From a virus, in the IMG/VR virus record IMGVR_UViG_3300049060_000085, positions 10,771-74,770 of that record: a stretch of 64,000 nucleotides of DNA; one strand, 5' to 3'. Positions 7,270-58,597 of the stretch are shown here, in pieces. A model generated the notes under the pieces. The model saw only the letters and a list, made by a program, of their open reading frames with translations. It was not told where the DNA came from and made no database searches. The stretch's first letter is position 1; each line of letters starts with the position of its first letter. A program made the position numbers and the translations under genes.

Positions 7270-7885
7270 CTGCACAACAAACCCGTGCAACCTGTGTAAG
7301 GAGCGGGCGAAGTACGCAAACATCTTTGTTGCCGTGGACAAGCGCGGTGGGTCGCGCGGTAAGAGCCGACCTAACTTCGTGTGCGGGCACTGCATCCCAA
7401 CACATCGCCCACGTATCGACGTGTCGCGCGACTGCGCCCAAGTCTGGGAAGCTGGCAGCACCGGCTGGACTGGACCAATCAGCTGCATGGATTGCGGCGA
7501 TGGAATCAGCGTAGAGATAATCAACCAACCGAAAGAACCTAGAGCCATGCCCAAAACCGCAATCGTTGACCAACACGCAGCAGACGAACTTGAGCTGTTC
7601 CTAGAGAACGATGAGCCCCTCTACAGGCAGACGCAGGAGTGTTACCGCAACCTGCTCCGCAAACAAAAGCGCGGCACCTACGATCGCGAGCGCGCTGTGA
7701 AGCTGTTTCAAACCGTAGCCGACGAGGCCGCTAGGAGGTACCAGCGCGAGTTTGGCTCCGGAGTTCGTGGCTATGGGCCGTTCGACAAGCCCACACGCAC
7801 CGCCGTAGCGGTCTCACTGCGCGACAGCTTCGAAGCGCAGGTAAAGAATGGCGAGCTGTCACACCTCACCGAGGCTAAGTCATGA
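7262..7885 (+). CDS. Cys-rich (three CxxC) N-terminal part in frame with a conserved phage helical domain (second start 7547)
   Basis: CNLC, CGHC, CMDC; then ADELELFLENDEPLY..YDRERAVKLF..AARRYQREFG. Confidence 0.7.
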   Translation: MDDCTTNPCNLCKERAKYANIFVAVDKRGGSRGKSRPNFVCGHCIPTHRPRIDVSRDCAQVWEAGSTGWTGPISCMDCGDGISVEIINQPKEPRAMPKTAIVDQHAADELELFLENDEPLYRQTQECYRNLLRKQKRGTYDRERAVKLFQTVADEAARRYQREFGSGVRGYGPFDKPTRTAVAVSLRDSFEAQVKNGELSHLTEAKS

Positions 7886-8070
7886 AACGACGAAGCGACG
7901 CGGATACCGCCGACATATTCCTCGCGTGGTTTACGAGTCCGATCGATGACAAGGGTACACCGTACCACCCCATACCAGAACGCTGTTGCTACCAAGGTTG
8001 CGCTGCGACGTGCGCCAAACCGCGGGACACCTACTGCACCAAACACGTTCCGACTAAAGGTCAGCCATGA
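7882..8070 (+). CDS. small Cys-rich hypothetical protein
   Basis: ATGA coupling; CCYQGCAATC..YCTKH. Confidence 0.6.
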   Translation: MKRRSDADTADIFLAWFTSPIDDKGTPYHPIPERCCYQGCAATCAKPRDTYCTKHVPTKGQP

Positions 8071-10313: not shown

Positions 10314-10682
10314 ATGACCACCAAGACCGCAAACAAGAACCTCACCAGCTTTATCAAGTCGCTCGACCCCAAACTCACCGCGGCCCAGATGTGCGCCAGG
10401 GCCAAAGCCGCGGGCTACAAGCCCGAGCGCGGCAGCAAGAAGCCACTGGCCGAGTGGCTGAGTTCCCGCGTCAGCTCAATCCGCTACACGCTCGGCATCA
10501 AGAGCGGCCAGCCCGCTGCGCCAGCGCCCGCTAGCGCAGCGCTTACACCTGAGCGGGTGCGAGCGGTCAAGTCGTTCGCCTTGAGCCCGGCAGGCGGCGA
10601 GGAGGCGTTCAGGCAGACTGTCCGCCGCATCGGCACGGACCGGGCACGCGTGCTGCTCGACCAGATAGAAGGCGAGCCGTGA
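10314..10682 (+). CDS. basic, possibly DNA-binding protein
   Basis: Lys/Ala-rich N-domain, Pro/Ala linker, C-terminal EAFRQTVRRIGTDRARVLLDQIE. Confidence 0.7.
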   Translation: MTTKTANKNLTSFIKSLDPKLTAAQMCARAKAAGYKPERGSKKPLAEWLSSRVSSIRYTLGIKSGQPAAPAPASAALTPERVRAVKSFALSPAGGEEAFRQTVRRIGTDRARVLLDQIEGEP

Positions 10683-10840
10683 ACCCCGTAGACGCGGGCG
10701 CCGTGGTCCTGGCTGCCGTGGTCGTCTTCCTGGTCGGCCGTGACGGCATGCGCTACGGCTTCCGAAACCTCCCCATGGCGCAGCTTGTGTACTTTTGGTT
10801 CAGCGTGTTCCTGATCGCCCTGACCGCTGGAGGATTTTGA
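10679..10840 (+). CDS. 53-aa two-TM membrane protein
   Basis: GTGA coupling; two hydrophobic stretches. Confidence 0.5.
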   Translation: MNPVDAGAVVLAAVVVFLVGRDGMRYGFRNLPMAQLVYFWFSVFLIALTAGGF

Positions 10841-11643: not shown

Positions 11644-11816
11644 TCAAAGAACTGGTCGAACGCGTGCAGTCGGCCTTTGCCGCCGGCCAAGAAGACGAGC
11701 GCATGCACGTCGTGCAGCACCTCCGCCGCATGTCCGCCGAAACCAGCGTGCCGGCAGTAGCGCTCGAGTGGCGCATTGCAGCTGACACCATCGAGAAAGG
11801 TGAACACCGGAAATGA
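11640..11816 (+). CDS. 58-aa hypothetical protein
   Basis: ATGA coupling at both ends. Confidence 0.55.
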   Translation: MIKELVERVQSAFAAGQEDERMHVVQHLRRMSAETSVPAVALEWRIAADTIEKGEHRK

Positions 11817-12190
11817 ACATCCTAGCCATCGTATTCGCGCTCTTGTTCCTTCTTTGCTGTGGAGGCGGCTGCAGCACGGCGCACGCGCAAGCCTGCTACG
11901 ACAACGCGCCGAACATCCGCCAACATTACACCGAAGCCTACGGCTGCGAGTGGATCTCTGACTACTGGGCCGACTGCGGCTACATCACCGCGGGCACCAA
12001 CGAACCGTGGCGCACCTACCTCTATCTGCTGAACCCAACCACCAGCCCGGACGGGACAGTCAGCCGCTGGATCGTGCAATGGCAAAACTGCCTTGAACCC
12101 GAGCTGCAGAACTGCGGAGCGCGCATCCCGCGCGTGGTCGCATGCGCCTGTGACGAGTGCAACGTCTGCTACTACGAAGGCGAGCCGTGA
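11813..12190 (+). CDS. exported Cys-rich protein (signal peptide or lipoprotein)
   Basis: MNILAIVFALLFLLCCGGGC.., 8 further Cys. Confidence 0.7.
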   Translation: MNILAIVFALLFLLCCGGGCSTAHAQACYDNAPNIRQHYTEAYGCEWISDYWADCGYITAGTNEPWRTYLYLLNPTTSPDGTVSRWIVQWQNCLEPELQNCGARIPRVVACACDECNVCYYEGEP

Positions 12191-12441: not shown

Positions 12442-12644
12442 ACAAAGGCTATCCATGGCGCGGCGTCGTCCTCATCAACCGATTTGACTACGTGGTCAAA
12501 CGGAAGATTCCCGCGCGAAGCAGTCGCATGGGCTACGAGTGCCAGTTCTGCGGAAGCGTCTTCACTCGAAAGCACGTGCGCTGGGTGGGCGACGGCTGGT
12601 CGTGCCGTGACAGCTGTGAACGCAAACGAAAGGGACTACCGTGA
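12438..12644 (+). CDS. small Cys-containing protein
   Basis: CQFC..CRDSC. Confidence 0.6.
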   Translation: MNKGYPWRGVVLINRFDYVVKRKIPARSSRMGYECQFCGSVFTRKHVRWVGDGWSCRDSCERKRKGLP

Positions 12645-12811
12645 ACCTAACGCTCTTTGTGATCGCAATAGGCCAAACACTGTTCTTTGCTTGGGCCGTC
12701 ATGGATCGACCCAATCACTGGTGGTTGATCATCGGCTTTGTGGTTCTGAACATCCTCCGCTCGACTCTGGAAGAGGAGAAGATCAAAGCGATAGTTCGGA
12801 GGGTCCGGTGA
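12641..12811 (+). CDS. 56-aa two-TM membrane protein
   Basis: GTGA coupling; hydrophobic. Confidence 0.5.
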   Translation: MNLTLFVIAIGQTLFFAWAVMDRPNHWWLIIGFVVLNILRSTLEEEKIKAIVRRVR

Positions 12812-15417: not shown

Positions 15418-15819
15418 ATGGACGAAGATATGCAACGCAGGTTGAGCTCGTTCACGCGCTGGTGGAAGCTCACGCGCCATCGCATCGGCGTAGCGCTCGA
15501 AGACACGTGCACCGAGCTGAAGACGACACCGCGCACAACAGCATCAACGCGCAGCCGCAAGGCGTTCGACGAGGCGGACGTCATTCGCAAGGGTGTCGAG
15601 TCGCCAGCCTACGAAGGCGTCAGCGCGGAAGCGCTTTGGAAAGCGTGGGCGAGCGGCGAAAAGAACGTGTCGATCTACTCGGGCAAAGGCAGTAAGCCCA
15701 CGGCCAAGGAGCTCGTGGCCCACCTACGCGACCCGAACGTGGTGCCTGGGCCGCACTCCGCCGAGGACATCGCTGGCATGGCCGTGGTCATCCACGAGAA
15801 CGATGTGTACAAGCCATGA
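15418..15819 (+). CDS. hypothetical protein
   Basis: AAGGAG SD. Confidence 0.7.
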   Translation: MDEDMQRRLSSFTRWWKLTRHRIGVALEDTCTELKTTPRTTASTRSRKAFDEADVIRKGVESPAYEGVSAEALWKAWASGEKNVSIYSGKGSKPTAKELVAHLRDPNVVPGPHSAEDIAGMAVVIHENDVYKP

Positions 15820-16022
15820 TCGACGACTCAGACGCAGACTTCTTCGGAATCGCCGGCATCGCTACTTCGGGCTGGGTCAGCGTAGTCCTGTGCCTCATCG
15901 CGCTCGGGCTCTACTTCGTCGCCTGTCAGAACAAGGACGAATGCGCCCAAGCGCACTGCGACGTCGGCAAGCCCGTGCTTGCCCATCACCAATGCATCTG
16001 CGAAACGCCAGCGAGGAAATGA
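15816..16022 (+). CDS. small membrane-anchored Cys-rich protein
   Basis: TM then C..ECAQAHC..CIC. Confidence 0.65.
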   Translation: MIDDSDADFFGIAGIATSGWVSVVLCLIALGLYFVACQNKDECAQAHCDVGKPVLAHHQCICETPARK

Positions 16023-16023
16023 C

Positions 16024-16260
16024 ATGGACAAACCAAAGGTAACGATCGTCGTGGAGACAGACCCGGACGACGAATCGGGATTCGCCTGCGTGACCGTTTT
16101 GGTAAACGGAAAGAGAATCGCCTCGGGCCGCGCTGGTGGCGGCGAGCCCGAGGACAACACCTACCACCGAGACTATTCGTGGATCGACGACGGCTTCGCC
16201 TCGCTCGCGCGAGCTCTAGGTGCCGAGGTCAGCATCGAGCACAGCAAGGAAGAGCGTTAG
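16024..16260 (+). CDS. conserved phage hypothetical protein
   Basis: GGEPEDN..RDYSWI motif. Confidence 0.7.
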   Translation: MDKPKVTIVVETDPDDESGFACVTVLVNGKRIASGRAGGGEPEDNTYHRDYSWIDDGFASLARALGAEVSIEHSKEER

Positions 16261-17594
16261 GAATGCAGTGCGATAAGCCGATCGGCTTCGCGTTTGCCAG
16301 ACTCGTACGCTCCGGGAACCTGCGCGAAGCCTGTATCCAGGGTGGCCTCTCCCGCGAATAGCACCTTGTTATTTGCGACAGGCTCGCGCAACAGCGCGCG
16401 GTCCCCGAGCTGCGTGGTCGTGGTGAATGTGGAGTACGAGCCGCGCGCATACGGGTCCTGACCCCAGCGCGTGACCTTCACGCTCACCGGGTCGGGCGCG
16501 GTCGCGCACACGGTCGCGCGCAGCCGCGTCATCGCTTCGGCCTGTAGCTGCGCGTCGGTCCAGCCCTCGCGCTCGAGCGCCGCATCGCCGCTCAACCAGC
16601 CCATCAGCATCGGCTTGCCGGTGATGTGCTGCATGTTGATGAACACGCTGAACGCGCCGCGCGTGGTCGAGCTTGTGAGCAACACCGCGCGGTCCGCCGG
16701 CCAAAACTGCGTGCCCGTGGGGAACTCGAGGAAGACCTTGTTCAGCAAACCGCTGCCCAAGCGCGCGATCGCGCCCGTCTTCGCCGTGGGCAGCGCAGGC
16801 GTGAACGCGATGGCGTTCGCCTTGAGCACGCCAATCGGCACTGTGACGATCACGTGGTCAGCCTGGTGTGTGCCCGTGTGCTCGCCGAAGTCCGTAGTCA
16901 CGCTGACCATGCTGCCCGAGTAGTTGATCTCAAAGACCGGCTCACCGAACCGGATGTCGAGCCCGACTGCGAGTTGCTGAGCTACCTGATCGAAGCCGCC
17001 GGGGAAGGCGCTGTTGTCGCCCTCGCTTGAGCTAAAGAACACGTCCCATGCGGTCTTGTCGGACAGGTTGGGCACCAGCTCGAGTGCGGACTCGGCGGGG
17101 ATCTTCGACGCGCTGTTTGCGTATTCCGTGTCGATCGCGGCGGTTGTGAACGTCTCCACAAACCCCCTCGAATAAGGCCCAAATCCACCCGTGTAGTAAT
17201 GCACGTCGACCACGGTTTGCATCGACCAGCGAGGATGTAGCCACGCGTTCCAGCCCACACAGTCGACGATCCGCGCTCTCATGTCGCTAAAGATCGCCGG
17301 CGTAACCGTGGTAGGCGCCATCGGCAGCACGCGGTGGTACTTCATCGTGGTGAAGTCGGTGTTCACAATGTCGAGCTCCATGGCCGCAACCATCGACTCG
17401 AACTCGGCCCAATTGCCGTGAATCCACGCCGCGCCGAGATCGACAGTCGTGCCGCTCGGGTTGGTCCCCGAGCTCACGCGCCCGCCCACCCGATCGCGCG
17501 CTTCGAGCACGACGACCTCAAAACCGGCAGTCTTCAACCGCTGCGCAGCCGCAAGGCCCGCGAACCCTGCGCCCACCACAATGACTTTTGGCAT
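16257..17594 (-). CDS. flavin-containing amine oxidase (MAO/polyamine oxidase/LSD1 family)
   Basis: GAGFAGLAAA..VVLEARDRVGGR, DLGAAWIHG, VIVTVPIGVLK, LGSGLLNKVFLEF, TRWGQDPYARGSYS, LFAGEAT, VPGAYESGKREA. Confidence 0.95.
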   Translation of the reverse strand: MPKVIVVGAGFAGLAAAQRLKTAGFEVVVLEARDRVGGRVSSGTNPSGTTVDLGAAWIHGNWAEFESMVAAMELDIVNTDFTTMKYHRVLPMAPTTVTPAIFSDMRARIVDCVGWNAWLHPRWSMQTVVDVHYYTGGFGPYSRGFVETFTTAAIDTEYANSASKIPAESALELVPNLSDKTAWDVFFSSSEGDNSAFPGGFDQVAQQLAVGLDIRFGEPVFEINYSGSMVSVTTDFGEHTGTHQADHVIVTVPIGVLKANAIAFTPALPTAKTGAIARLGSGLLNKVFLEFPTGTQFWPADRAVLLTSSTTRGAFSVFINMQHITGKPMLMGWLSGDAALEREGWTDAQLQAEAMTRLRATVCATAPDPVSVKVTRWGQDPYARGSYSTFTTTTQLGDRALLREPVANNKVLFAGEATLDTGFAQVPGAYESGKREADRLIALHS

Positions 17595-17597
17595 AAG

Positions 17598-18179
17598 CTA
17601 TCTCCACTCCCCGATTTCAAAATGCATGGCGTCGATCAGCTCGCCGCCGAAGTCGATCCCGCACACGATTCCAGCCATCCATCTTCGCCCGCTCGGGTCG
17701 GTCACGAGCACGCGCACGCCGCGCGCCTTGTCGATGATCGGCCACAGGCTACCAGGTTTGCCGCGCGCCACACCCGGCTGACCCTGCTTGTTGAGCGCGG
17801 CGGAGTGGTTGAAGTCGAGCGCGATGCCGCGGCTGTGGCGGCTCAGGTAGGGTGCCCAGTCGCGCGTGGGGCTGTCGGTCTTGGCCAGGTTCTTCGCCCC
17901 TCTCATGAGCCGCGGGACGAAGCTGCCGCCGAACTCCTTGAGCGCTTCGCACGCCTCTTTGTCCCAGCTGCGAAACCAAGCCTCGAACACCGGCGCCGCG
18001 CGCTCATGCACGCGGATCGCCGTGGTGATGCCGGTCGGAACCGGCAGCTTGAGCCGCACAAGGTTTTCGGCCTCCCACTTGATCGGCACCGTGACCTTGC
18101 CCTCTTGCGAGATGACAAAGTCCAGGTCGAAGTTTTGGAGCATCCGCCCGCGCGTCAGTTGCCTGCAAACCAAGGGCAT
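17598..18179 (-). CDS. M15-family peptidoglycan peptidase (endolysin)
   Basis: FGGSFVPRLMRG..LSRHSRGIALD..DAMHFE Zn-peptidase motifs. Confidence 0.85.
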   Translation of the reverse strand: MPLVCRQLTRGRMLQNFDLDFVISQEGKVTVPIKWEAENLVRLKLPVPTGITTAIRVHERAAPVFEAWFRSWDKEACEALKEFGGSFVPRLMRGAKNLAKTDSPTRDWAPYLSRHSRGIALDFNHSAALNKQGQPGVARGKPGSLWPIIDKARGVRVLVTDPSGRRWMAGIVCGIDFGGELIDAMHFEIGEWR

Positions 18180-18455: not shown

Positions 18456-18875
18456 CTAAACCGCGAGCTTGTACGCCATTCGCTTGCGTCTCTCGCCGCA
18501 CGGAAGCTGGCATGTCACCGTACGACCTACAGCGACCACCAGTTTTAGGTGCATCAGCCTACGTACTGCGCACCCCTGTTCCGACGAATGTGGAACAAAC
18601 CCCGGCCAACCTTCGGTGGCCGAGCCTTTGCGAATCTCCTCGAGCACGAGCTTTTGCGACTCGGTGAGTGTGCTGAGCGGGTCGAGTGTGGGCTCTGAAA
18701 TGTCCACCACGCGCAGCGCGGCGACGACCGCCGCGCACTTCTGACACGTGGCGCCTGTGACAGGGTCGGTTTCATCCTGAAGCTTTACCCCGCTCGCGGC
18801 CTTGCCGCAGAACGTCTTATGCCCGCGCGCGATATGCAGCACGAGCTCGGTACTCTTTCGGCGTGGGGTTTTCAT
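18456..18875 (-). CDS. Zn-finger + winged-helix-like protein
   Basis: H..H.TFCG..TCQKC; LTESQKLVLEEIR..VRRLMHLKLV. Confidence 0.65.
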   Translation of the reverse strand: MKTPRRKSTELVLHIARGHKTFCGKAASGVKLQDETDPVTGATCQKCAAVVAALRVVDISEPTLDPLSTLTESQKLVLEEIRKGSATEGWPGFVPHSSEQGCAVRRLMHLKLVVAVGRTVTCQLPCGERRKRMAYKLAV

Positions 18876-19089: not shown

Positions 19090-19812
19090 TCACCCCGCTA
19101 GCAATCTGGTTTCGACGAACTCTTTTTTGAAGCGGAACACGAAGGCGACGCCGTGCCCGTCTGCATGGATTTGGTTGTACTGGAAGGGCACAAACCCTTG
19201 CCGGTTGTTGTCGTCCGCGTCTTGCCCGAGCCAGATAGGCTGGTTTCTCTTGTTGCGCTTCATGCCCGCGAAGACGTCGTACTGCCCGTCGCGCATGTGG
19301 TGACCCCAGTGAATCATGGAGTCCTCTTCGAAGAATTTCCCGCTCTTGGGAACGATGCGCACGATCGCGAGGCTCTCCAGCCGCGGCTTCAGCTCTGGAA
19401 GCCACGGCGTCGTCTGGCGGTCGAACCCGAAGTCTTCGCCGGGCGAGATGCTACGAAGGGCAAGCGTCGAAAGCGCGCGCGCGCCCTGCCGCATGTCTCG
19501 AACCCACATGTCCATATGCCGCGCGTTGGCCGGCCAGTCGCGCCACCCTTGAATGTACCAAGGCACGGTGACTACGAAGTCCTGGCCTATCCACTGCGTC
19601 GCGATGAACGGCGCGGCGAGCTGGCCCTGGAAGTACGGTGTGCCGAGCACCGCTCCGTGGTTGGACGGGTCAAGCAGCCGTGACTTCGCCTTGCGCTTCG
19701 CGATGGTCCGACGCGACACTGCATGACTCGCAGCCGCTTTGCGCTTGTCCGCTGGCGTCATCGTGATCGTGCTGAGCAGTTGCTTGAGATTCATACGCTG
19801 ATAGTTCGGCAT
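19090..19812 (-). CDS. diverged RusA-like Holliday-junction resolvase candidate
   Basis: position after DnaB; IVRIVPK..FEEDSM..MRDG..DADD echoes the RusA R..DxDN..K..DG..DD pattern. Confidence 0.5.
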   Translation of the reverse strand: MPNYQRMNLKQLLSTITMTPADKRKAAASHAVSRRTIAKRKAKSRLLDPSNHGAVLGTPYFQGQLAAPFIATQWIGQDFVVTVPWYIQGWRDWPANARHMDMWVRDMRQGARALSTLALRSISPGEDFGFDRQTTPWLPELKPRLESLAIVRIVPKSGKFFEEDSMIHWGHHMRDGQYDVFAGMKRNKRNQPIWLGQDADDNNRQGFVPFQYNQIHADGHGVAFVFRFKKEFVETRLLAG

Positions 19813-20106: not shown

Positions 20107-21468
20107 TCACCACCGCGGGTTGGTTGCATGTGAATCCTCTTGTTCGTGCCGGGCCCTGTCGCTGAACCTGGCGTACTTGCCGTCGAAGCGGCAGGCGAAC
20201 TCACCGAGCTCACCGCCGCGCTGTTTCCGCAGATGTATTTTCGCTGCCGTCCGGTCGTTCTGGTCAACGGTTACGAACAACACGACATCCGCATCTTGTT
20301 CTATGGAACCACTCTCGCGCAAGTCGCTAAGTTGCGGAGGTCGATTGTCCCTCTTCTCTACCTCGCGATTCATCTGCGCCAGCAGAACTACGGGTACGTT
20401 CAGTTCTTTCGCGAGTAGCTTGCACTCACGACTTATCTCCGACACCTCTTGTTCGCGGGAATACCCTGACGACTTCCCGCGGTGTTGTTCGCTTTTGATG
20501 AGTTGCAAGTAGTCGATGACGATGATCCCCAACGGGTCGCGCATGTGCTCTCTGCGCGCGTGTCTTGATACTTGCTCGATGGTCCAGCGCGCGGCGTCCA
20601 CGACGGTCATCTTCTTTCCAATGAGACCGTTCATGGCTGCGATCATCGGCCTGAACTGCTGCATGCCAAACGCCCGGCGGTTGATGGTCTTGCTGTCGAC
20701 TTGAGCGCGGCCAGCGAGAAGCCGTTCTGCGAGCTCCTCTTTCGACATCTCGAAGCTGTAGATCATCGCGCGCGCGCCAAAGTCCATGGCGGACTCAGCG
20801 CACTGCACGCCCAGGCATGTTTTCCCTGAGCCTGGGCGTCCTGCGATGACGATGCTCTGCCCTGGCTTGAGCCCATCAAGCATACCTTCTAGCGTTTTCA
20901 ACGGGGCCGGGATGAATTGCCGAGGCGGCAGCGTCATCCCATCGCGCATGCTCATGGCAGCCTGCACGATAGGCTCCATCAGCTTGTCGATGTTCTCGGC
21001 GCGAACGCCGTGCTCGCGCTCGGCCAGCGCAGCCGAGAACTCTGTGCCGGCCCGATCAAGAACGCGCTCGGGGTCTGCCGTTGACTCGGGGTCGTTGCAC
21101 ATCCCGAGCACTGTGAGACACGCGCGCGAGACCCTGCGCAACACGGCCAGGTTCTTCAGCAACGCAACGGCCGAATCGAGAGATTGGCCCACCAGGTGCG
21201 AGTAGCCACGCAGCATCATCTCGTCGAGAAACCGAACAACGCCCGGCTTGCCCGCGCACGCAGCGCGCAGGCTGACCATGTCGAGCACCTGTGCGTTTTT
21301 GTTGAGCACGTCGAGCGCTCGCTCGAACGTTTCGGCATGCTCGGGAATGTGAAAGTCGTCAGGCGTGAGCGCGGCCGCAACGATCGGCGCGTTCGTCTCG
21401 AGCAAAAGCATCGAGGAGATTACAGCTTCTTCGAGACGAGGATTGTGCGGAAGGCTAGGTGCAAGCAT
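20107..21468 (-). CDS. dnaB: replicative DNA helicase
   Basis: N-domain LPHNPRLEEAVI; GRPGSGKT, SFEMSKEEL, VIDYLQLI, SDLRESGSIEQDADVVLF. Confidence 0.97.
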   Translation of the reverse strand: MLAPSLPHNPRLEEAVISSMLLLETNAPIVAAALTPDDFHIPEHAETFERALDVLNKNAQVLDMVSLRAACAGKPGVVRFLDEMMLRGYSHLVGQSLDSAVALLKNLAVLRRVSRACLTVLGMCNDPESTADPERVLDRAGTEFSAALAEREHGVRAENIDKLMEPIVQAAMSMRDGMTLPPRQFIPAPLKTLEGMLDGLKPGQSIVIAGRPGSGKTCLGVQCAESAMDFGARAMIYSFEMSKEELAERLLAGRAQVDSKTINRRAFGMQQFRPMIAAMNGLIGKKMTVVDAARWTIEQVSRHARREHMRDPLGIIVIDYLQLIKSEQHRGKSSGYSREQEVSEISRECKLLAKELNVPVVLLAQMNREVEKRDNRPPQLSDLRESGSIEQDADVVLFVTVDQNDRTAAKIHLRKQRGGELGEFACRFDGKYARFSDRARHEQEDSHATNPRW

Positions 21469-48692: not shown

Positions 48693-50003
48693 TTAGCTCG
48701 CGAGTGCCACGCCGCCGTTGGCGGTGTTGTTCGCGATGCCGGTGATCAAGAAGTTCCGGTACGGCATCTCGAACACAGGCGCTTGATTGCTGAAGATCTT
48801 CATCTGCGCACCCGCGTTGCCGGTGAGGTGCGTGAAGAAGGCCTCGGCGCCTCCGCCGATCGGACGCATGGTCAAGTCGGTGCTACCCACACGACGGAAG
48901 TTGTCGTTCGAGATGAAAAACGCTTGGCCTTGCTTCGCGTACTGATACACGACGACTTCGACCTGACCGGCCGCCGTCTCGTAGATCAGCTGCGATGCAC
49001 CTTGGCGCTTCACCTTGTCGGTGTTCGCCGTGTAGCGCTGCAGCGCGTTCGCCTCTTCGGCGAGGTCTGCGAAGGTCGGCGCGCAAACGAAAAGCTTGCC
49101 TCCGTTCTTCACGCCGTTGATGGAGACGGCCGCGGCCATCGCCATGATCTTCGCGCGGGACATGGCGCCACCGGCACCGAACGTCATGCAGCGCCACGGA
49201 GCCACGTTGGCGGCATTGATGCCGAAGATCGAGCCCGTGTTGTTGTAGATGGCTTCGAGCCCGAAGCACGACTTGGTGCGCCAGCCGAGCGGCACGATCT
49301 TGTCGTTGGCGGCGACGGTCGCAGCCGAAGCCGCCTTCGTCAGCTGCAAACGCGTTTGCGTGGTGCTCGGACGCGCGTCCACGTTGACGTTGGTCTCGCG
49401 CAGCGTGGTGCCATCGGTCTGGTAGATGTCTACCTTCATGCCGTTGGTGCCAGTCGCGATGATCCACAAGCCGGGGATCCAGCTCGCTTCGGTGAGGTAC
49501 ACGACCTGGGTCGCGCCCAAGTTCGCGCCGCTCACGCTTCCGCCGACCACACCGATGTTCGATGCGACCGCGGTCGAGGTGCCCGGACCGTAGGCCAGTG
49601 CGAGCTCGCGGTAGAGCGCCGCACCTTGCAGCATCGCTTGCACCGTCTGGTCGAGCGCGGTCTTGTAGGCAGGCCCCTGATTGCCATTGCCCGTGCCGTT
49701 GAGCGACTTGTAGATGGTGTCGTAGCTGACGACCGACTGCAGCAAGATCGTTGCGCCGTCGAGGTTTGCGTTCAGCACCGTCGAGTCCACCGCAGGGTTC
49801 AGTGCGAACGCGGAGCCGTCGACGTTGGCTGTTTGACCAAGCTCCAAGCCGGTCAAGACGGGGAAGTTGTAGCCGAGACCAGGACGGTTCTCGGAAGGGA
49901 TGAAATCGCCGAAATCTGCGAGGGTGTGCTCATCCGGCAGCGGGTCGATCCATCGACCGTAGCGCTGCTTAAACATGCCGTTGACTGAAGGCACAGATGC
50001 CAT
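48693..50003 (-). CDS. major capsid protein (HK97 fold, podovirus type)
   Basis: 436 aa, after scaffold, long leader and GGAG SD; GLGYNFPVLTG, FGLEAIYN. Confidence 0.8.
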   Translation of the reverse strand: MASVPSVNGMFKQRYGRWIDPLPDEHTLADFGDFIPSENRPGLGYNFPVLTGLELGQTANVDGSAFALNPAVDSTVLNANLDGATILLQSVVSYDTIYKSLNGTGNGNQGPAYKTALDQTVQAMLQGAALYRELALAYGPGTSTAVASNIGVVGGSVSGANLGATQVVYLTEASWIPGLWIIATGTNGMKVDIYQTDGTTLRETNVNVDARPSTTQTRLQLTKAASAATVAANDKIVPLGWRTKSCFGLEAIYNNTGSIFGINAANVAPWRCMTFGAGGAMSRAKIMAMAAAVSINGVKNGGKLFVCAPTFADLAEEANALQRYTANTDKVKRQGASQLIYETAAGQVEVVVYQYAKQGQAFFISNDNFRRVGSTDLTMRPIGGGAEAFFTHLTGNAGAQMKIFSNQAPVFEMPYRNFLITGIANNTANGGVALAS

Positions 50004-52448: not shown

Positions 52449-54734
52449 TCACTGCATGGCGCCCGCCGGTGGCGAGCTTGGCTGAGGAAGCGGTGTGCCG
52501 TTGCCAGACGCGCCGGTAGGGCCTGCCACTTGCCCCGAGACGTCTCCGCTGTTCTGCATGGTGGCCTGGTCGCTCGGCGCCGCCTGCGCGCTTAGACCGC
52601 CGTCTGGCGGCTGCGCGCCGGGCATGCCGCCACCGCCCTGCGCTGGGTTGGCAGCGCCTGAGTTGGCGCCCTGCTGCTGCGGCTGCCCGAGACCTTGCAG
52701 CTGGCCCGTGGCCAGCATGAACTCGAAGGTCATGTTGCCGCGCGGCGCCATCGGATTCGGCACGATCGGCGGAGGCGGGGGGATTTGCTGGAACTGCGCG
52801 ACCAGCGGGTTGAGCTGCAAATACGCTTCCGTGTGCGCCTGCAGGTGCAACCGCACGCGCATGATCGCCTCCAGGTCGGGGACGTCCGCCGCCATCAACT
52901 GCTCCAGCATGGCGTTGTGGAGCGGCCAGTGCTTGAAGGGGTTGTCGCCGGGCATGACGGGCACGAGGCCTTCGCCGGTGACCAGGCGCTCGTTTTCCTT
53001 GCGGATGAGCATCTCGGCGCTGTTTTCGGTCTTGAGCCAGCGCGTGGTGTTGCCGGTGGTGACCATCTCGTAGGTCGCCGCGCGATCTTCATCGGGCATG
53101 TTGCGCAGCGCGGTGGCGATTTGCAGACGGCCTGCGGTCGACTGCATGAGCGGGCTGATTTGCTCGATGTCGACGCGCTGCACGCCGGACAAGTCTTCCT
53201 TGGTGAACTCGGCGACGTACGAGCGCTGCTCGATGCCGGCGATGTCCACCAAGAACGGCGTTTCGCCGTAGCGCGTGATGAGGTCTAGGATGATTTGCGC
53301 GCCGTCGATGCGGAACTTGCGCGCGGCGTCTTGGCGGAACGATTGGTAGCGAATCGCGATGCTGTCGAGCAGCGCGTTCATTTCTCCAGAGCGGACGTTG
53401 GGGTCCGGGTCGCCGCGGCTGGCCGCGTTCTGACCGGAAACCGTGTCCAGCATCTTGTGCAAATAGCTTTTGAGATCCGGAAGCGTCGCCGGTACAGCAG
53501 CAAGCTGCACTGCTTTCGGCATCTGGGCGTTGGGAGGGACGTAAAACGCAGTACCTTGAGCGAGCGCATCGAGGGTGACCTCAGTGCCCTTCTCTATCGC
53601 GATGCTTTGACGACCAAAGGTCGCGTAGTTTTGCATTTCATCGCTGTTGACCTGGTTCAACGCTTGCTGAATCGCGATGAGGTCCCACGCATCCGCATAC
53701 CCAAACGTCGACTCGATGAAGCGTCCCGACTGCATCACCGCGATGGGCAAGCCACGTTTGCGCGGACACGGGCCGTCCCAGAGAATCACGTCACCCGCCA
53801 TCATCACGTAGCGGCCCTCGGGCACCGCGGCGCAGCGACGGTGATAGAAGTGCTTGACGGTGAGCTGGTCCTTCGAGCTGTAGTAGAGCTCCTCGAGGCG
53901 AAAGAGCGTGCCGAAGTCGTACCGGTCGTAGTCGGTTTTGACCGCCAAAAGCTCGTCACGCTTCGCCGGGAAGTTGGCGATCAAGTTCCAGCGGTTATCC
54001 AGCTCGCGGACCATGCGCCACTGGTGCTCGCCGGCGACCCGCGGCTCTTGAACAAGCGCCCACGGGTACACCACGGTGACGATGGGCTCGCCCGACTTCT
54101 CGATCGAGAAATGCTGCGCCGTGGTGCCGTCCTCCAGCTGGATGTCACGCGGCACCTTCATGTCGTCGCCGCCGAGGAAGTCCCAGCGGTAGTGCGTTGC
54201 GCCGAGGCCAAAGACGCCGTCGCCCTCCGCGGCGTCCATGTCGAGCGGCGCGCTGTAGCGCTTGTATAGCGAGTTGATGATCTTGTCGGTGAGCACGCTC
54301 TTCGCAAACGAGCGGTGGTCGCTGTTGCTCACAAGCGCCTTGAACGCTGCAGGCTCACCCAGCGCCAAAGACGTCTGATGTCGGATGTACGGGCGAATCA
54401 GGTTCAGGTGAAAGCGCAGAAGCTCCAGCTCGTTGCCACTGAATCCGATCGTCTGCGTCGCGAAGTCGCGCAGGTCGTCCGGCGTCAGGCCGTGGTGGGC
54501 GGCGTAGGCCACGACCCACATCGCAAGCAGGCCGCGGTTACGCGCGCTCTCGAAGAAGGCCTCTTCTTTGGCTTTGATCTCCGAGATGAAGTCCGGTCCC
54601 GACTTGCGCGCCCAGTAAATCTGGGACGGGTCGATGACCGGCTCTTCTTCCGGGTCGATAGGCCGAAGCGGGTCGCTGAGATCGGAGGCAGCGCCGAGCT
54701 GATCGAATGGAACTACGTTTTCTTGACCCAACAC
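52449..54734 (-). CDS. portal protein
   Basis: 761 aa between TerL and scaffold; LNLIRPYIRHQ..GEPAAFK, QQALNQVNSDEM, Q/P/G-rich C-terminal barrel. Confidence 0.85.
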   Translation of the reverse strand: MLGQENVVPFDQLGAASDLSDPLRPIDPEEEPVIDPSQIYWARKSGPDFISEIKAKEEAFFESARNRGLLAMWVVAYAAHHGLTPDDLRDFATQTIGFSGNELELLRFHLNLIRPYIRHQTSLALGEPAAFKALVSNSDHRSFAKSVLTDKIINSLYKRYSAPLDMDAAEGDGVFGLGATHYRWDFLGGDDMKVPRDIQLEDGTTAQHFSIEKSGEPIVTVVYPWALVQEPRVAGEHQWRMVRELDNRWNLIANFPAKRDELLAVKTDYDRYDFGTLFRLEELYYSSKDQLTVKHFYHRRCAAVPEGRYVMMAGDVILWDGPCPRKRGLPIAVMQSGRFIESTFGYADAWDLIAIQQALNQVNSDEMQNYATFGRQSIAIEKGTEVTLDALAQGTAFYVPPNAQMPKAVQLAAVPATLPDLKSYLHKMLDTVSGQNAASRGDPDPNVRSGEMNALLDSIAIRYQSFRQDAARKFRIDGAQIILDLITRYGETPFLVDIAGIEQRSYVAEFTKEDLSGVQRVDIEQISPLMQSTAGRLQIATALRNMPDEDRAATYEMVTTGNTTRWLKTENSAEMLIRKENERLVTGEGLVPVMPGDNPFKHWPLHNAMLEQLMAADVPDLEAIMRVRLHLQAHTEAYLQLNPLVAQFQQIPPPPPIVPNPMAPRGNMTFEFMLATGQLQGLGQPQQQGANSGAANPAQGGGGMPGAQPPDGGLSAQAAPSDQATMQNSGDVSGQVAGPTGASGNGTPLPQPSSPPAGAMQ

Positions 54735-56049: not shown

Positions 56050-56402
56050 GTCTGCTCTTTCAAAATGTCGTCGATGTTCGGCTCGGCGAAACGTTCGGCG
56101 AGCGCGGGGGGTTTGGCTTTGGACTTGGCCTTCGCTTCGGGCACGACGCGCACGAAGTACGTGCCGAGCTCCTCGGGAGGCATAGCGTCGTAGACGGCCG
56201 GAGTGCCCGGGTAAGTGATGACGGCGTCGCCGTAGCGCACGTACTTGTGCTGCTTGTTCGTGCCAGCGAGGATGGAGCCCACAACCGTTTCGTCTTCGTA
56301 GAAGCTGTCCGGAGCCACCGCGACATGCCCGTGCGCGGGGTCGTAGAAGTCGACCAGCACGTGCAGCGGCGGCGCTTGTTTTTCTTCGTACACAAACGGC
56401 AT
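56046..56402 (-). CDS. hypothetical protein
   Basis: coupled on both sides. Confidence 0.7.
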   Translation of the reverse strand: MPFVYEEKQAPPLHVLVDFYDPAHGHVAVAPDSFYEDETVVGSILAGTNKQHKYVRYGDAVITYPGTPAVYDAMPPEELGTYFVRVVPEAKAKSKAKPPALAERFAEPNIDDILKEQT

Positions 56403-56755
56403 CAGAATTTCTTCTGGGACATGTTGCCCATGTGCATGGTGATCTTGGTGGCTTCGCTCATGCAGCGTTCCACCGCGTCTTTGACGTCGGTGCCCATGCG
56501 CTGAAGGATGCGGCCTTGCTTGGTGAGCTCGTCGCGAATCTCGTCGCGGTCGCGCAGCGTTTCACCGCGCAGCACCGATAGCTCCTCCCGTAAGCGCGCG
56601 ATCGCCGCGAGTGCGGTCTCCGCGGTCTCGCGCGCGTCGTGGTCGGCTGCGCGCTCGGCGCTGGGCTTGTCCCGGAAGAGGTTGAGCACGAGAGCGATAA
56701 CGAAGCCGCTCACGGCGGCCTTCCAAAGATGGATGAACAGGTCGACAATCGTCAT
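56402..56755 (-). CDS. N-terminal TM + coiled-coil protein
   Basis: LFIHLWKAAVSGFVIALVLNLF then heptads. Confidence 0.7.
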   Translation of the reverse strand: MTIVDLFIHLWKAAVSGFVIALVLNLFRDKPSAERAADHDARETAETALAAIARLREELSVLRGETLRDRDEIRDELTKQGRILQRMGTDVKDAVERCMSEATKITMHMGNMSQKKF

Positions 56756-56758
56756 GGG

Positions 56759-58597
56759 CTATCTGCGTCCTCGGCCACCGTCGTAGAGCTTGAGTCGGCC
56801 GCGCTGGTGGATGCCGTGCGCCGCGTTCTGGGCGTGCTCGAGGGCGAGCTCGTGCGGAGCCTTGGGCATCCAAGGCAGGCGTTCGATCACGGTGACACCG
56901 GCGGGGAACTCACGGAGAATGTGCTCGGGGGGGTGGGGCCGAGAATTCGTATACTGCTCGACCTTACGCACCATGTAAACGAGCGCCGAGGCCAAGTCGA
57001 AGTGTCCGTAGACCTCGTGTTCAGCTAGTTTTCCGCGTTTGTCGCGCTTTGCCGAATGCACGTGGTCGATGACCGCACCCGCGTGGGGGGAGAACCACAT
57101 CCGGCCCTCGCCGAGCCAGTTACGGACGTTGCGAATCATGGTGGTGAGCTCTTCCTTGGTGGTCGCCAAGAACTCGAGCCCGTAGTGCTCGTCGATGTCG
57201 CGGATGAGCTGCTTGTCGACGTCGCTCACGCGCGCGGCGGGGTTCAGGTGAAAGCCTTGTCGGTCGTAGTACGGGGTGATCGCACCGGGGATGGGTTTGA
57301 TGATCCAATCGCCTGGGCGTCGCTCGCTTGTGGGGCGATCGACGAGCGGGGTCGTCGCCATGCGATGGAGCTCGGGTGCTAGCTTTTCGTACTTGTCGCC
57401 GTGAAGAAGGTCGCGCCATCCAGCGTGGACGCCGTCGTGCTGCGCAGGGATTCGGCGCATACGAACGTCCGGCCACCGACCCCAAAGCACGAACTCGCGT
57501 GCTGCGCAGACAGCGCTGACTTCCATGGACCCTGCATTCGATTTGGCCCATGAATCCAGGATAAGTAGTCGGTCAGCGTCAAAGTCATACTCGCCCCAGA
57601 TAAGCCCGAATAAGTGCACTTGGCCAGGGTCTGCGGCGACAAACCCATACGCGTGCTTCGGCCTTTCGAAGTGGCGTACGTGGAGCTCGCGGGTGAACTC
57701 GGGGAAGGCTTTGAGGGCTGGGTCGCCGGCAATGATATTGAAGTATTCGCGCTCGCAGTTCGGGTTGCCGCGCCCGCCTGCCATGCCGATCCAGTAGTCT
57801 TTTTCGCGCCGGGTGAGCTTCGAGTTGTCCTCGATCGTCACCTCTGCGAATGCGCCGCGCCGTTTGGCGTCGGGCATCACGATGCGCTCCCAGTCCGTGT
57901 CTTGGTCCTCGGGCGCCGAGCTCTCCACCATCATGCGCGCCCAGGGGCGCTGCTGGTATTGGTGGATGAGGACGTTTCGGACCGCGTAGTCCAGATTGCT
58001 GATGAACGCTGCTTCGGAGACGAAGTCGAAGTCGTTCTCCTGGCCGCGCAGGGCGTCTTTGTTGACGTCGATGCCCGCGAGCGCGAGCCGTGCGCCGCCG
58101 GTCGGACCATCTTCGGGCCAGTACAAGCCGGCGGGGAGGATACCGCGCTTGCCGTGGTAGGTCGGCACCGCGTAGTCGGGCGCGGTGCTAAAGGCCTGCG
58201 TGACGACCGAGCCTGCGATCTCGTCGATGTTGCGCTGGAAGGCGCTCGTGAGGCGCATCTTGGCGGGTCGGCCGTATTTGCGGAAATACCAGACCGCAAT
58301 CTCGTACGCGACCCACAGGTACAGCGTGGTTTTGCCGAAGCGCTTGCCGCCCGCGATGACGAAAATCAGCGGGATGGAGCCGGTCTCGTGGACCTCCTCG
58401 AGCTGGTCGATCTCACGCCAGGCGTGGATCTGATTTCTCAGCGCGAGCTGCCCCGAATGCATGAGGCCGGAGAGGTCTCCGGTCTCCCATGAGAGGGCGA
58501 TGAGCTCCTCGTCTGTAAGCGCGTCGAGGTCAGCCTCGGTGAGCTGCTTTTCGAAGACGAGGGCGTCGGGGTCGTTTTCTAGGTCGTCAGGGTACAA
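56759..58597 (-). CDS. terL: terminase large subunit
   Basis: AGGKRFGKT Walker A, LRGQEND.DFVSEAAF Walker B region, ESSAP coupling motif, VAADPG nuclease Asp, GHFDLASALVY. Confidence 0.9.
   Translation of the reverse strand: MYPDDLENDPDALVFEKQLTEADLDALTDEELIALSWETGDLSGLMHSGQLALRNQIHAWREIDQLEEVHETGSIPLIFVIAGGKRFGKTTLYLWVAYEIAVWYFRKYGRPAKMRLTSAFQRNIDEIAGSVVTQAFSTAPDYAVPTYHGKRGILPAGLYWPEDGPTGGARLALAGIDVNKDALRGQENDFDFVSEAAFISNLDYAVRNVLIHQYQQRPWARMMVESSAPEDQDTDWERIVMPDAKRRGAFAEVTIEDNSKLTRREKDYWIGMAGGRGNPNCEREYFNIIAGDPALKAFPEFTRELHVRHFERPKHAYGFVAADPGQVHLFGLIWGEYDFDADRLLILDSWAKSNAGSMEVSAVCAAREFVLWGRWPDVRMRRIPAQHDGVHAGWRDLLHGDKYEKLAPELHRMATTPLVDRPTSERRPGDWIIKPIPGAITPYYDRQGFHLNPAARVSDVDKQLIRDIDEHYGLEFLATTKEELTTMIRNVRNWLGEGRMWFSPHAGAVIDHVHSAKRDKRGKLAEHEVYGHFDLASALVYMVRKVEQYTNSRPHPPEHILREFPAGVTVIERLPWMPKAPHELALEHAQNAAHGIHQRGRLKLYDGGRGRR

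Follow-up and report, generated by a model that had tools for sequence, protein, structure and literature searches.

Why would a phage carry an amine oxidase directly behind its probable endolysin gene, and where in the infection would such an enzyme act? The question arises from a 64,000-nucleotide stretch of viral DNA (here, the window; positions 10,771 to 74,770 of IMG/VR virus record IMGVR_UViG_3300049060_000085), drawn from a 75,003-bp record that CheckV rates as complete. The gene encodes a flavin amine oxidase that appears to descend, by a single capture with precise loss of the signal peptide, from an exported bacterial enzyme. It may act as a polyamine-type oxidase inside the infected cell. 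The gene, its upstream neighbor and the junction between them are as follows.

16257-17594, minus strand: flavin amine oxidase of 445 amino acids (aa), ATG start, of the polyamine oxidase (PAO)/SMOX/LSD clade, without signal peptide (open reading frame (ORF) list and Pfam PF01593).

17595-17610, minus strand: junction, read from the sequence, with the M15 stop TAG at 17600-17598, a CTT spacer, the oxidase ATG at 17594-17592 and GGAG at 17605-17602.

17598-18179, minus strand: M15/LAS zinc peptidase of 193 aa, a probable endolysin without signal peptide or membrane anchor (Pfam matches of orthologues, motifs and fold).

A preliminary description of this DNA had proposed a complete 445-aa amine oxidase, without export signal, beginning three nucleotides behind the M15 stop and served by a GGAG Shine-Dalgarno sequence. 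The ORF and junction readings agree with it on each count. Read on the minus strand, the spacer between the M15 stop and the oxidase ATG is 3 nt, and GGAG lies 7 nt before the ATG. Because the M15 stop is in frame with the oxidase, no upstream extension of the oxidase ORF is possible; and since the N-terminus opens directly on the strand that binds flavin adenine dinucleotide (FAD), at the dinucleotide-binding motif (VIVVGAGFAG), there is no signal peptide. In this phage, the oxidase is probably co-translated with M15. At the other end of the gene, the stop codons of the oxidase (16257-16259, minus strand) and of a convergent 93-aa ORF (15979-16260, plus strand) overlap, and no intergenic terminator lies between the two converging gene blocks at 16257-16260.

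The protein belongs to the flavin amine oxidase superfamily and shows every computable defining feature. Pfam Amino_oxidase (PF01593) matches it at 2e-74 (251.9 bits, against a cut-off of 19.8) and NAD_binding_8 at 7.8e-17; the beta-alpha-beta FAD motif GxGxxG and the LEARDRxGGR segment occupy residues 3-39, with G8, G10, G13, E31, R35, G37, G38 and R39 invariant. An AlphaFold (AF2) model built from 32 homologues has the expected FAD-binding and substrate-binding domains (predicted local distance difference test, pLDDT, 92; predicted template-modeling score, pTM, 0.90), and Foldseek aligns it with LSD2, PAO and PAOX at E 1e-37 and template-modeling (TM) scores of 0.82-0.84 (0.80-0.84 when SMOX and LSD1 are included). 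By sequence, the nearest solved relatives are the oxidase domain of LSD2 (1e-46) and SMOX (2.5e-40), together with LSD1, maize PAO and mouse PAOX, while a fold search of Swiss-Prot returns plant PAO2-5 (PAO4 and PAO2 first) and plant LSD-like proteins at the top, with 27-30% identity. NCBIfam holds no equivalog model for the oxidase, and PHROGs yields only Rossmann-motif noise.

Active-site lysines of this superfamily bridge to flavin N5 through a water molecule. HMMER alignments pair K286 (LLNKV) of the oxidase with the catalytic-site lysine of LSD2 (IEK) and SMOX (TDK), and Y387 (RGSYS) with the tyrosine of SMOX RGSYSY; the histidine segment GAAWIHG corresponds to GATWIHG in SMOX, where LSD2 has GAQIVNG. 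Conservation across 78 homologues, from phages and from bacteria, extends to W57, I58, H59, G60, N285, K286, Y387 and S388. Pfam, the HMMER alignments and the fold thus concur with the earlier assignment to a PAO/LSD-type class with intact FAD motifs, lysine and tyrosine. It had also been suggested that Q-V-P, where LSD1 has T-V-H, implies a different substrate. This says little: the position differs even between LSD2 and SMOX, Q425-V426-P427 being paired with T-V-T in the former and with T-T-H in the latter, and the phage glutamine falls at the second aromatic-cage position.

As judged from alignments and model, the best class would be a polyamine-oxidase-like flavin amine oxidase. Plant PAO2-5, maize PAO (1B37), SMOX (7OXL), PAOX (5LFO) and yeast Fms1 share its two-domain fold (TM 0.8-0.84), its size and its freedom from extra domains, and polyamine oxidases share the catalytic-site lysine (K286), the tyrosine (Y387) and the WIHG histidine. 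Unlike the eukaryotic polyamine oxidases, to which it is 26-30% identical, the protein is of bacterial/phage origin and has the cage glutamine; cellular sister proteins of the phage enzyme are Sec-exported, whereas eukaryotic PAOs are peroxisomal, cytosolic or apoplastic. LSD2/KDM1B, which gives the best PDB sequence score, and LSD1/KDM1A likewise share fold, lysine and tyrosine. They differ in their SWIRM, zinc-finger and tower domains, in IVNG (LSD2) as opposed to WIHG, and in acting in a chromatin context that the phage lacks. The phage protein is a bare oxidase domain, and its alignment with LSD2 spans only LSD2 residues 338-395 and 512-775. A histone-demethylase (LSD) reading was therefore rejected, given that Pfam shows no SWIRM and that the tower domain is absent. 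An L-amino-acid oxidase reading was also rejected, as no such enzyme occurs among the best 60 PDB sequence matches.

It is also possible to envision a substrate outside the polyamines, such as an N-methylated amine, an amino sugar or lipid head group, a myxobacterial metabolite or signal, or a modified protein lysine, with a use unrelated to polyamines. Room for this is left by the top single PDB score, which goes to a methyl-lysine demethylase (LSD2), by an identity of just 27-30% to characterized enzymes, by the missing equivalog and by the glutamine of the aromatic cage. We consider it unlikely nonetheless, given a compact 445-aa protein of polyamine-oxidase build with neither SWIRM nor tower, a WIHG histidine motif common to SMOX and absent in LSD2, and the lack of L-amino-acid oxidases among those 60 matches. 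Were the substrate not a polyamine, the enzyme would point to an unknown amine important in phage-host conflict.

The bacterial relatives indicate where such an enzyme came from. Every close homologue in bacteria has an export signal at its N-terminus. In a maximum-likelihood tree of 112 proteins, with support from the Shimodaira-Hasegawa-like approximate likelihood ratio test (SH-aLRT), 40 signal-less proteins form one clade (99) that is sister (99) to 21 bacterial proteins with Sec-type (type I) signals; outgroups have lipoprotein or Tat-type signals, with a lipoprotein box in 16 of the 17 proteins of the next clade and Tat-like starts in more distant homologues. Each signal-less member with a contig examined sits among phage genes. 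Four members of the phage clade look at first like exceptions; their genes were called too long, and none has a hydrophobic segment. In the nearest bacterial clade, the 21 proteins have a basic start, a hydrophobic core and a predicted cleavage site AFA/LP (the slash marking the cut). Many phage proteins start MTLPTPAPRV, a residue-for-residue match to bacterial ..AFA/LPxPPPRV, and the phage gene therefore starts two residues before the predicted cleavage site.

Apart from the signal, little separates the two groups. The Sec-exported sister enzymes (P0027, for example, from a metagenome-assembled genome labeled Polyangiales bacterium) are 50-61% identical to the phage oxidase, with only two fixed differences between the clades and the same active-site residues. 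Across the phage, Sec-type and lipoprotein-type clades, 81 positions, all catalytic ones included, are conserved. The sister enzymes differ in a region of 32-44 residues before the first FAD-fold strand, which holds the signal peptide (predicted to end at AFA/LP, about seven residues before that strand), in being almost free of cysteine, and in being encoded by stand-alone chromosomal genes. The simplest history would be that the oxidase was captured once, by the ancestor of a soil phage family, from a Sec-exported enzyme, losing exactly the signal peptide; as far as sequence can tell, the active site is unchanged by the capture. The source was probably a myxobacterial (Polyangiales-like) host. 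The oxidase on a phage contig (L106) and the exported form on two bacterial contigs (L007, L008) were recovered from one and the same metagenome sample.

A separate observation concerns the sister-clade FAD enzymes themselves (P0023-P0052; L007, L008, L115, L116), whose signals are Sec-type and not Tat-type and whose mature part is almost cysteine-free. A flavoprotein of this clade, if exported unfolded, would need to be loaded with FAD outside the cytoplasm, which is unusual.

Near-absence of cysteine is typical of exported proteins. Mature bacterial enzymes have 0.19 and 0.06 cysteines per protein, as against 2.35, 1.33 and 3.73 in three phage subclades; phage copies have gained one to four cysteines, and certain of these are fixed in a given subclade. 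Taken together, the lost signal peptide and the gained cysteines show the protein to be a long-time resident of the cytoplasm. Such residence fits intracellular action at least as well as action confined to the time after lysis. If correct, the sequence of single capture, precise signal removal and later cysteine build-up offers a clean natural case of an exported enzyme moved to the cytoplasm.

Gene order provides a second line of evidence on where and when the enzyme might act. The genes that place the oxidase within the genome are listed here.

18456-18875, minus strand: p139, a small conserved protein with a cysteine-pair N-terminus and, by eye, a helix-turn-helix-like C-terminus (synteny by tblastn).

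19090-19812, minus strand: p240, a conserved protein between DnaB and the oxidase/M15 block (gene order of relatives).

20107-21468, minus strand: DnaB-type replicative helicase (Pfam DnaB_C 6e-72, phrog_19 6e-80).

48693-50003, minus strand: major head protein, a virion gene.

52449-54734, minus strand: portal, a virion gene.

56759-58597, minus strand: large terminase, a virion gene.

On a single strand the order runs p152-p335-DnaB-p240-p139-M15-oxidase, an operon recognized as a replication module because DnaB is present. Between DnaB and the oxidase there is no convincing promoter or terminator, and the late-gene motif of this genome, sought with at most two mismatches, has no copy near M15 or the oxidase. 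The oxidase block is the far end of the DnaB replication operon. Tblastn shows p139 traveling with the oxidase and M15 in related phages, and p240 immediately precedes the oxidase in several relatives; p139 has no Pfam, PHROG or NCBIfam match, and p240 has none in these or in the Atlas. Further replication and recombination genes, for a Sak4-like/phrog_1366 protein and a Gam-like protein, lie on the plus strand.

Related phage contexts, in a family defined by common p152, p335, DnaB and p240 genes, show how far this arrangement holds. Twelve contexts were compared; those below are identified by their contig handles.

Window, L002 and L106: order p240-(p139)-M15-oxidase.

L004: order p240-CHAP-oxidase, with the CHAP protein at 7499-7990 (27.8 bits, above the Pfam cut-off).

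L003/L101, L005, L006, L105 and L118: oxidase 0.8-3.5 kb upstream of M15.

L099, of a more distant subclade: M15 upstream of the oxidase at a distance of 3 kb, seven genes intervening.

L100, of a more distant subclade: oxidase between Gp80-like genes and a gene for an 847-aa laminin-G protein, which is tail-gene territory.

The oxidase thus directly follows a wall hydrolase in four of the 12 contexts (M15 in three and CHAP in one), lies 0.8-3.5 kb upstream of M15 in six, follows M15 at 3 kb in one, and is found among tail genes in one. In L004 the lysin type is swapped, CHAP for M15, at the same slot upstream of the oxidase. What is constant is the home of the oxidase in this phage family, at the far end of the replication operon. 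One relative, represented by a complete genome with terminal repeats (that behind L109), keeps p240 and M15, with identities of 60% for DnaB and 63% for M15; the oxidase was found nowhere in that genome. The oxidase is accordingly an accessory gene, since a complete relative with M15 does without it. The tight packing behind M15 that had been described for this phage, with its 3-nt gap, is real; the idea of a conserved link to the endolysin did not survive the synteny comparison. Adjacency in only four of 12 contexts and absence from the L109 genome make the lysis link a feature of the phage family and not a rule.

Two side observations on this operon end come from individual contigs. An RNA ligase gene (PF09414) is inserted between the oxidase and M15 in L105 (7539-8735), which marks this end of the operon as a hotspot for accessory genes. 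The oxidase call in L005 is 508 aa long: a Cys/His-rich stretch of about 69 residues (L005:8001-8207) runs in frame, with no stop before the oxidase, and represents a gene call that is too long or else an N-terminal fusion of a small zinc-finger-like segment.

These arrangements bear on the proposal that the enzyme stays idle until holin and endolysin open the cell, and then destroys a released amine alarm or antiviral amine metabolite outside. The preliminary description also offered two further roles as possibilities, a supply of H2O2 to aid lysis and the cutting of amine-based envelope links. Several features are attractive from this standpoint. The gene is tightly coupled to an endolysin in four of 12 contexts, in one of them with CHAP taking the place of M15; the protein lacks a signal peptide, as does a canonical endolysin, whereas its bacterial relatives act outside the cytoplasm; and polyamines freed by lysis are proven danger signals in two species (PMC9992862, PMC10914755). 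Against this, hydrolase adjacency is not conserved, the oxidase lying among tail genes in L100 and seven genes from M15 in L099. A polyamine substrate would be abundant in the cytoplasm, so that the enzyme could not stay idle there. Free cysteines are not what an enzyme would typically gain if it were selected for work in an oxidizing exterior that it loads with H2O2 itself, and a single burst diluted in soil pore water would have to outrun diffusion of the signal. Action delayed until after lysis strikes us as unlikely.

The value of the reaction might instead lie in its products. Flavin amine oxidases release H2O2, and in such a scheme H2O2 and aminoaldehydes would kill or shut off the host, weaken the envelope for lysis, or harm competing cells or phages. 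The gene does adjoin a lysin in this phage, and a weapon role is conceivable for bacterial relatives that are secreted, one of them labeled Polyangiales; Polyangiales-type bacteria are often predatory. Set against these points, no link to a holin or spanin was found, endolysin lysis needs no oxidants, and the complete relative with the same M15 gene (the L109 genome) copes without the oxidase. Cytoplasmic oxidants would also strike replicating phage DNA. A product-centered role seems to us quite unlikely.

The accessory status of the gene also invites the suspicion that it is a neutral passenger, a host gene fragment acquired by chance and of no benefit to the phage, and its absence from the L109 genome and rarity in virus collections would suit such an origin. 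Conservation speaks otherwise. All catalytic residues are retained by roughly 40 cluster representatives that have diverged to as little as 44% identity. Pairwise ratios of nonsynonymous to synonymous substitution (dN/dS) among eleven phage oxidase genes are 0.13-0.55, with dS saturated, and these values, well under 1, indicate purifying selection on the oxidase. The gene has moved between at least two genome locations and is still intact, and its G+C content at third codon positions (0.82) is like that of the rest of the phage. A passenger is disfavored by this conservation, and we hold it to be very improbable.

The account that we favor, though with less than full confidence, is that a polyamine-type oxidase, captured and signal-less, is active in the infected cell, is spilled at lysis, and blunts polyamine-based restriction or alarm; it is the most plausible of those weighed here, while falling somewhat short of probable. 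Synthesis of the enzyme and its loading with FAD would both take place in the cytoplasm, starting in the replication phase (mid-infection). There the enzyme would oxidize a polyamine-type amine (spermidine, putrescine or a relative) to an aldehyde, with H2O2 as a further product if O2 is the acceptor, and the free amine pool of the host would thereby be lowered or converted. At lysis, the oxidase would be spilled with the cell contents and could act on the outside. The least certain step is the benefit, which may be to blunt the polyamine build-up or alarm signaling that curbs phage replication and spread.

Precedents exist for several parts of this scheme. Polyamines serve bacteria as alarm signals upon lysis and also to restrain the replication of phages (PMC9992862, PMC10914755): in Pseudomonas aeruginosa, intracellular polyamine accumulation inhibits phage genome replication (PMC9992862), and Vibrio cholerae is protected from phage by norspermidine set free on lysis (PMC10914755). 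Spermidine N-acetyltransferases, which inactivate spermidine, are themselves found among phage genes (PMC9992855).

A number of points weigh against intracellular polyamine oxidation as the function. On the side of the enzyme, LSD2 matches score as well as polyamine oxidases, and identity to any characterized oxidase is only 27-30%. Some exported members of the superfamily, NicA2 among them, pass electrons to cytochrome c and not to O2, and the oxidase chemistry is therefore not certain. Given that the bacterial relatives work outside the cytoplasm, the natural substrate could be an amine of the periplasm or the exterior that the cytoplasm does not contain. Formation of H2O2 and aminoaldehydes in the cell during replication could harm the phage. 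On the side of its setting, host assignment is indirect, and the precedents for polyamine defense are gamma-proteobacterial, not myxobacterial. Of other polyamine genes, neither a GNAT acetyltransferase nor a spermidine synthase was found in the phage, and the oxidase gene occurred in no RNA run among the runs searched.

A bolder version would make the oxidase a countermeasure against polyamine-based bacterial threat responses and the first known viral enzyme that oxidatively erases a danger or defense metabolite. On this view, a secreted host enzyme would have become an anti-defense tool, intracellular and released at lysis, by losing its signal peptide. This extension is speculative, and we give it clearly less credence than the general account above.

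Phages need polyamines, and viral genes acting on them are not new. A survey of virus-encoded polyamine enzymes lists ornithine decarboxylase, arginine decarboxylase, S-adenosylmethionine decarboxylase, spermidine and homospermidine synthases, spermidine N-acetyltransferase and acetylspermidine amidohydrolase; it names no oxidase, a word that occurs in it zero times (Li et al. 2023, PMC9992855). If its substrate is a polyamine, the phage oxidase would resemble these as an auxiliary gene acting on the polyamine pool of the host, and would differ in a chemistry that is oxidative and irreversible and has reactive products. A conserved phage clade of polyamine-oxidase-like enzymes would, if the assignment is right, add an oxidative, irreversible arm to viral control of host amines, and would offer a direct handle on whether polyamine-based defense exists in soil myxobacteria.

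As a phage gene, the oxidase is of a type without described counterpart. Tblastn against 50,697 GenBank phage records gave no match, in keeping with the earlier statement that no characterized phage amine oxidase was known, and a pattern-limited scan of 2.9 million IMG/VR contigs found four true phage loci. Two further IMG/VR loci (L014, L015), with frames of 471-475 aa in records classed as proviruses, were left out of the phage genes; they probably represent genes of host type lying at the edge of a provirus. Bacterial polyamine oxidase genes in polyamine-linked operons are mentioned in a paper on envelope-stress operons (PMC11237479). When 5.8 billion proteins were searched, the homologues 58-78% identical to the oxidase lay on contigs of 30-83 kb and those 46-61% identical on bacterial contigs of greater length. 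Scans of genome and metagenome contigs gave, among the matches listed, mostly distant relatives (at most 40% identity). Near-identical DNA was found in soil and rhizosphere sequencing runs of many studies, and a megablast of 20 kb of the window against GenBank phages gave no match.

For the neighboring M15 gene, the most likely start is at 18179, its ATG being preceded by GGAGG at a distance of 4 nt. Its product is probably the endolysin of this phage, a reading built on Pfam scores of orthologues, zinc motifs, the LAS fold and its being the sole wall hydrolase found. The window protein scores 19.5 bits with Peptidase_M15_4, under the 25-bit cut-off; three of four orthologues so scored exceed it (26.8, 28.4 and 35.4 bits), the fourth, L006, standing at 19.5. 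The motifs SxHxxGxAxD and DxMHxE are invariant in eight orthologues (S113, H115, G118, A120, D122, D183, H186, E188), with H115, D122 and H186 as the zinc triad. The model has a pLDDT of 91.5. Foldseek matches are weak, and only with VIA-align does a relationship to LAS proteins come out consistently: the first 16 rows of its exhaustive search are all LAS proteins at a moderate Z of 3.4-6.5, among them VanXYc/g, LdcB, VanY, VanX, Ply500, LysB4 and the T5 and RB49 peptidases, with Z of 5.5-6.5 for VanXYc, LdcB, Ply500 and LysB4. Among language-model neighbors in the Atlas, 92 of the 100 nearest clusters are M15_4, and M15_4 clusters are 81-91% viral. Searches of the PDB by sequence or profile, and of PHROGs, returned no match for the protein, and a six-frame search of the whole 75-kb genome with seven wall-hydrolase Pfam families returned M15 as the sole match.

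As a probable lysin, signal-less and of the holin-dependent type, M15 resembles the lysins of canonical lysis cassettes. T7 gp3.5 is a lysin encoded in a replication gene cluster, and M15 is like it in its place within such a cluster. Unlike in canonical cassettes, no holin or spanin adjoins it, and the oxidase has no known counterpart in any described cassette. A hydropathy scan found no holin or spanin in the M15/oxidase block; small membrane proteins lie elsewhere, for example at 10679-10840, 12641-12811, 15816-16022 and 56402-56755. One of these (15816-16022, plus strand; 68 aa, Cys-rich, one membrane helix) belongs to the plus-strand block of small genes that converges on the oxidase, as does a Cys-rich protein of 125 aa with a signal-peptide-like start and a lipobox-like segment, CCGGGC (11813-12190, plus strand). 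Both products are possible candidates for a holin, a spanin or a superinfection-exclusion protein.

Finally, two relatives carry a second copy of the last 48 M15 residues, 85% identical to the window protein (L003:9230-9373 and L101:11223-11366). The duplicate lies about 300 bp downstream of the full M15 gene, within an ORF called as an HNH_3 endonuclease in L101, and resembles the trace that a homing endonuclease would leave on inserting at the lysin gene's 3' end.

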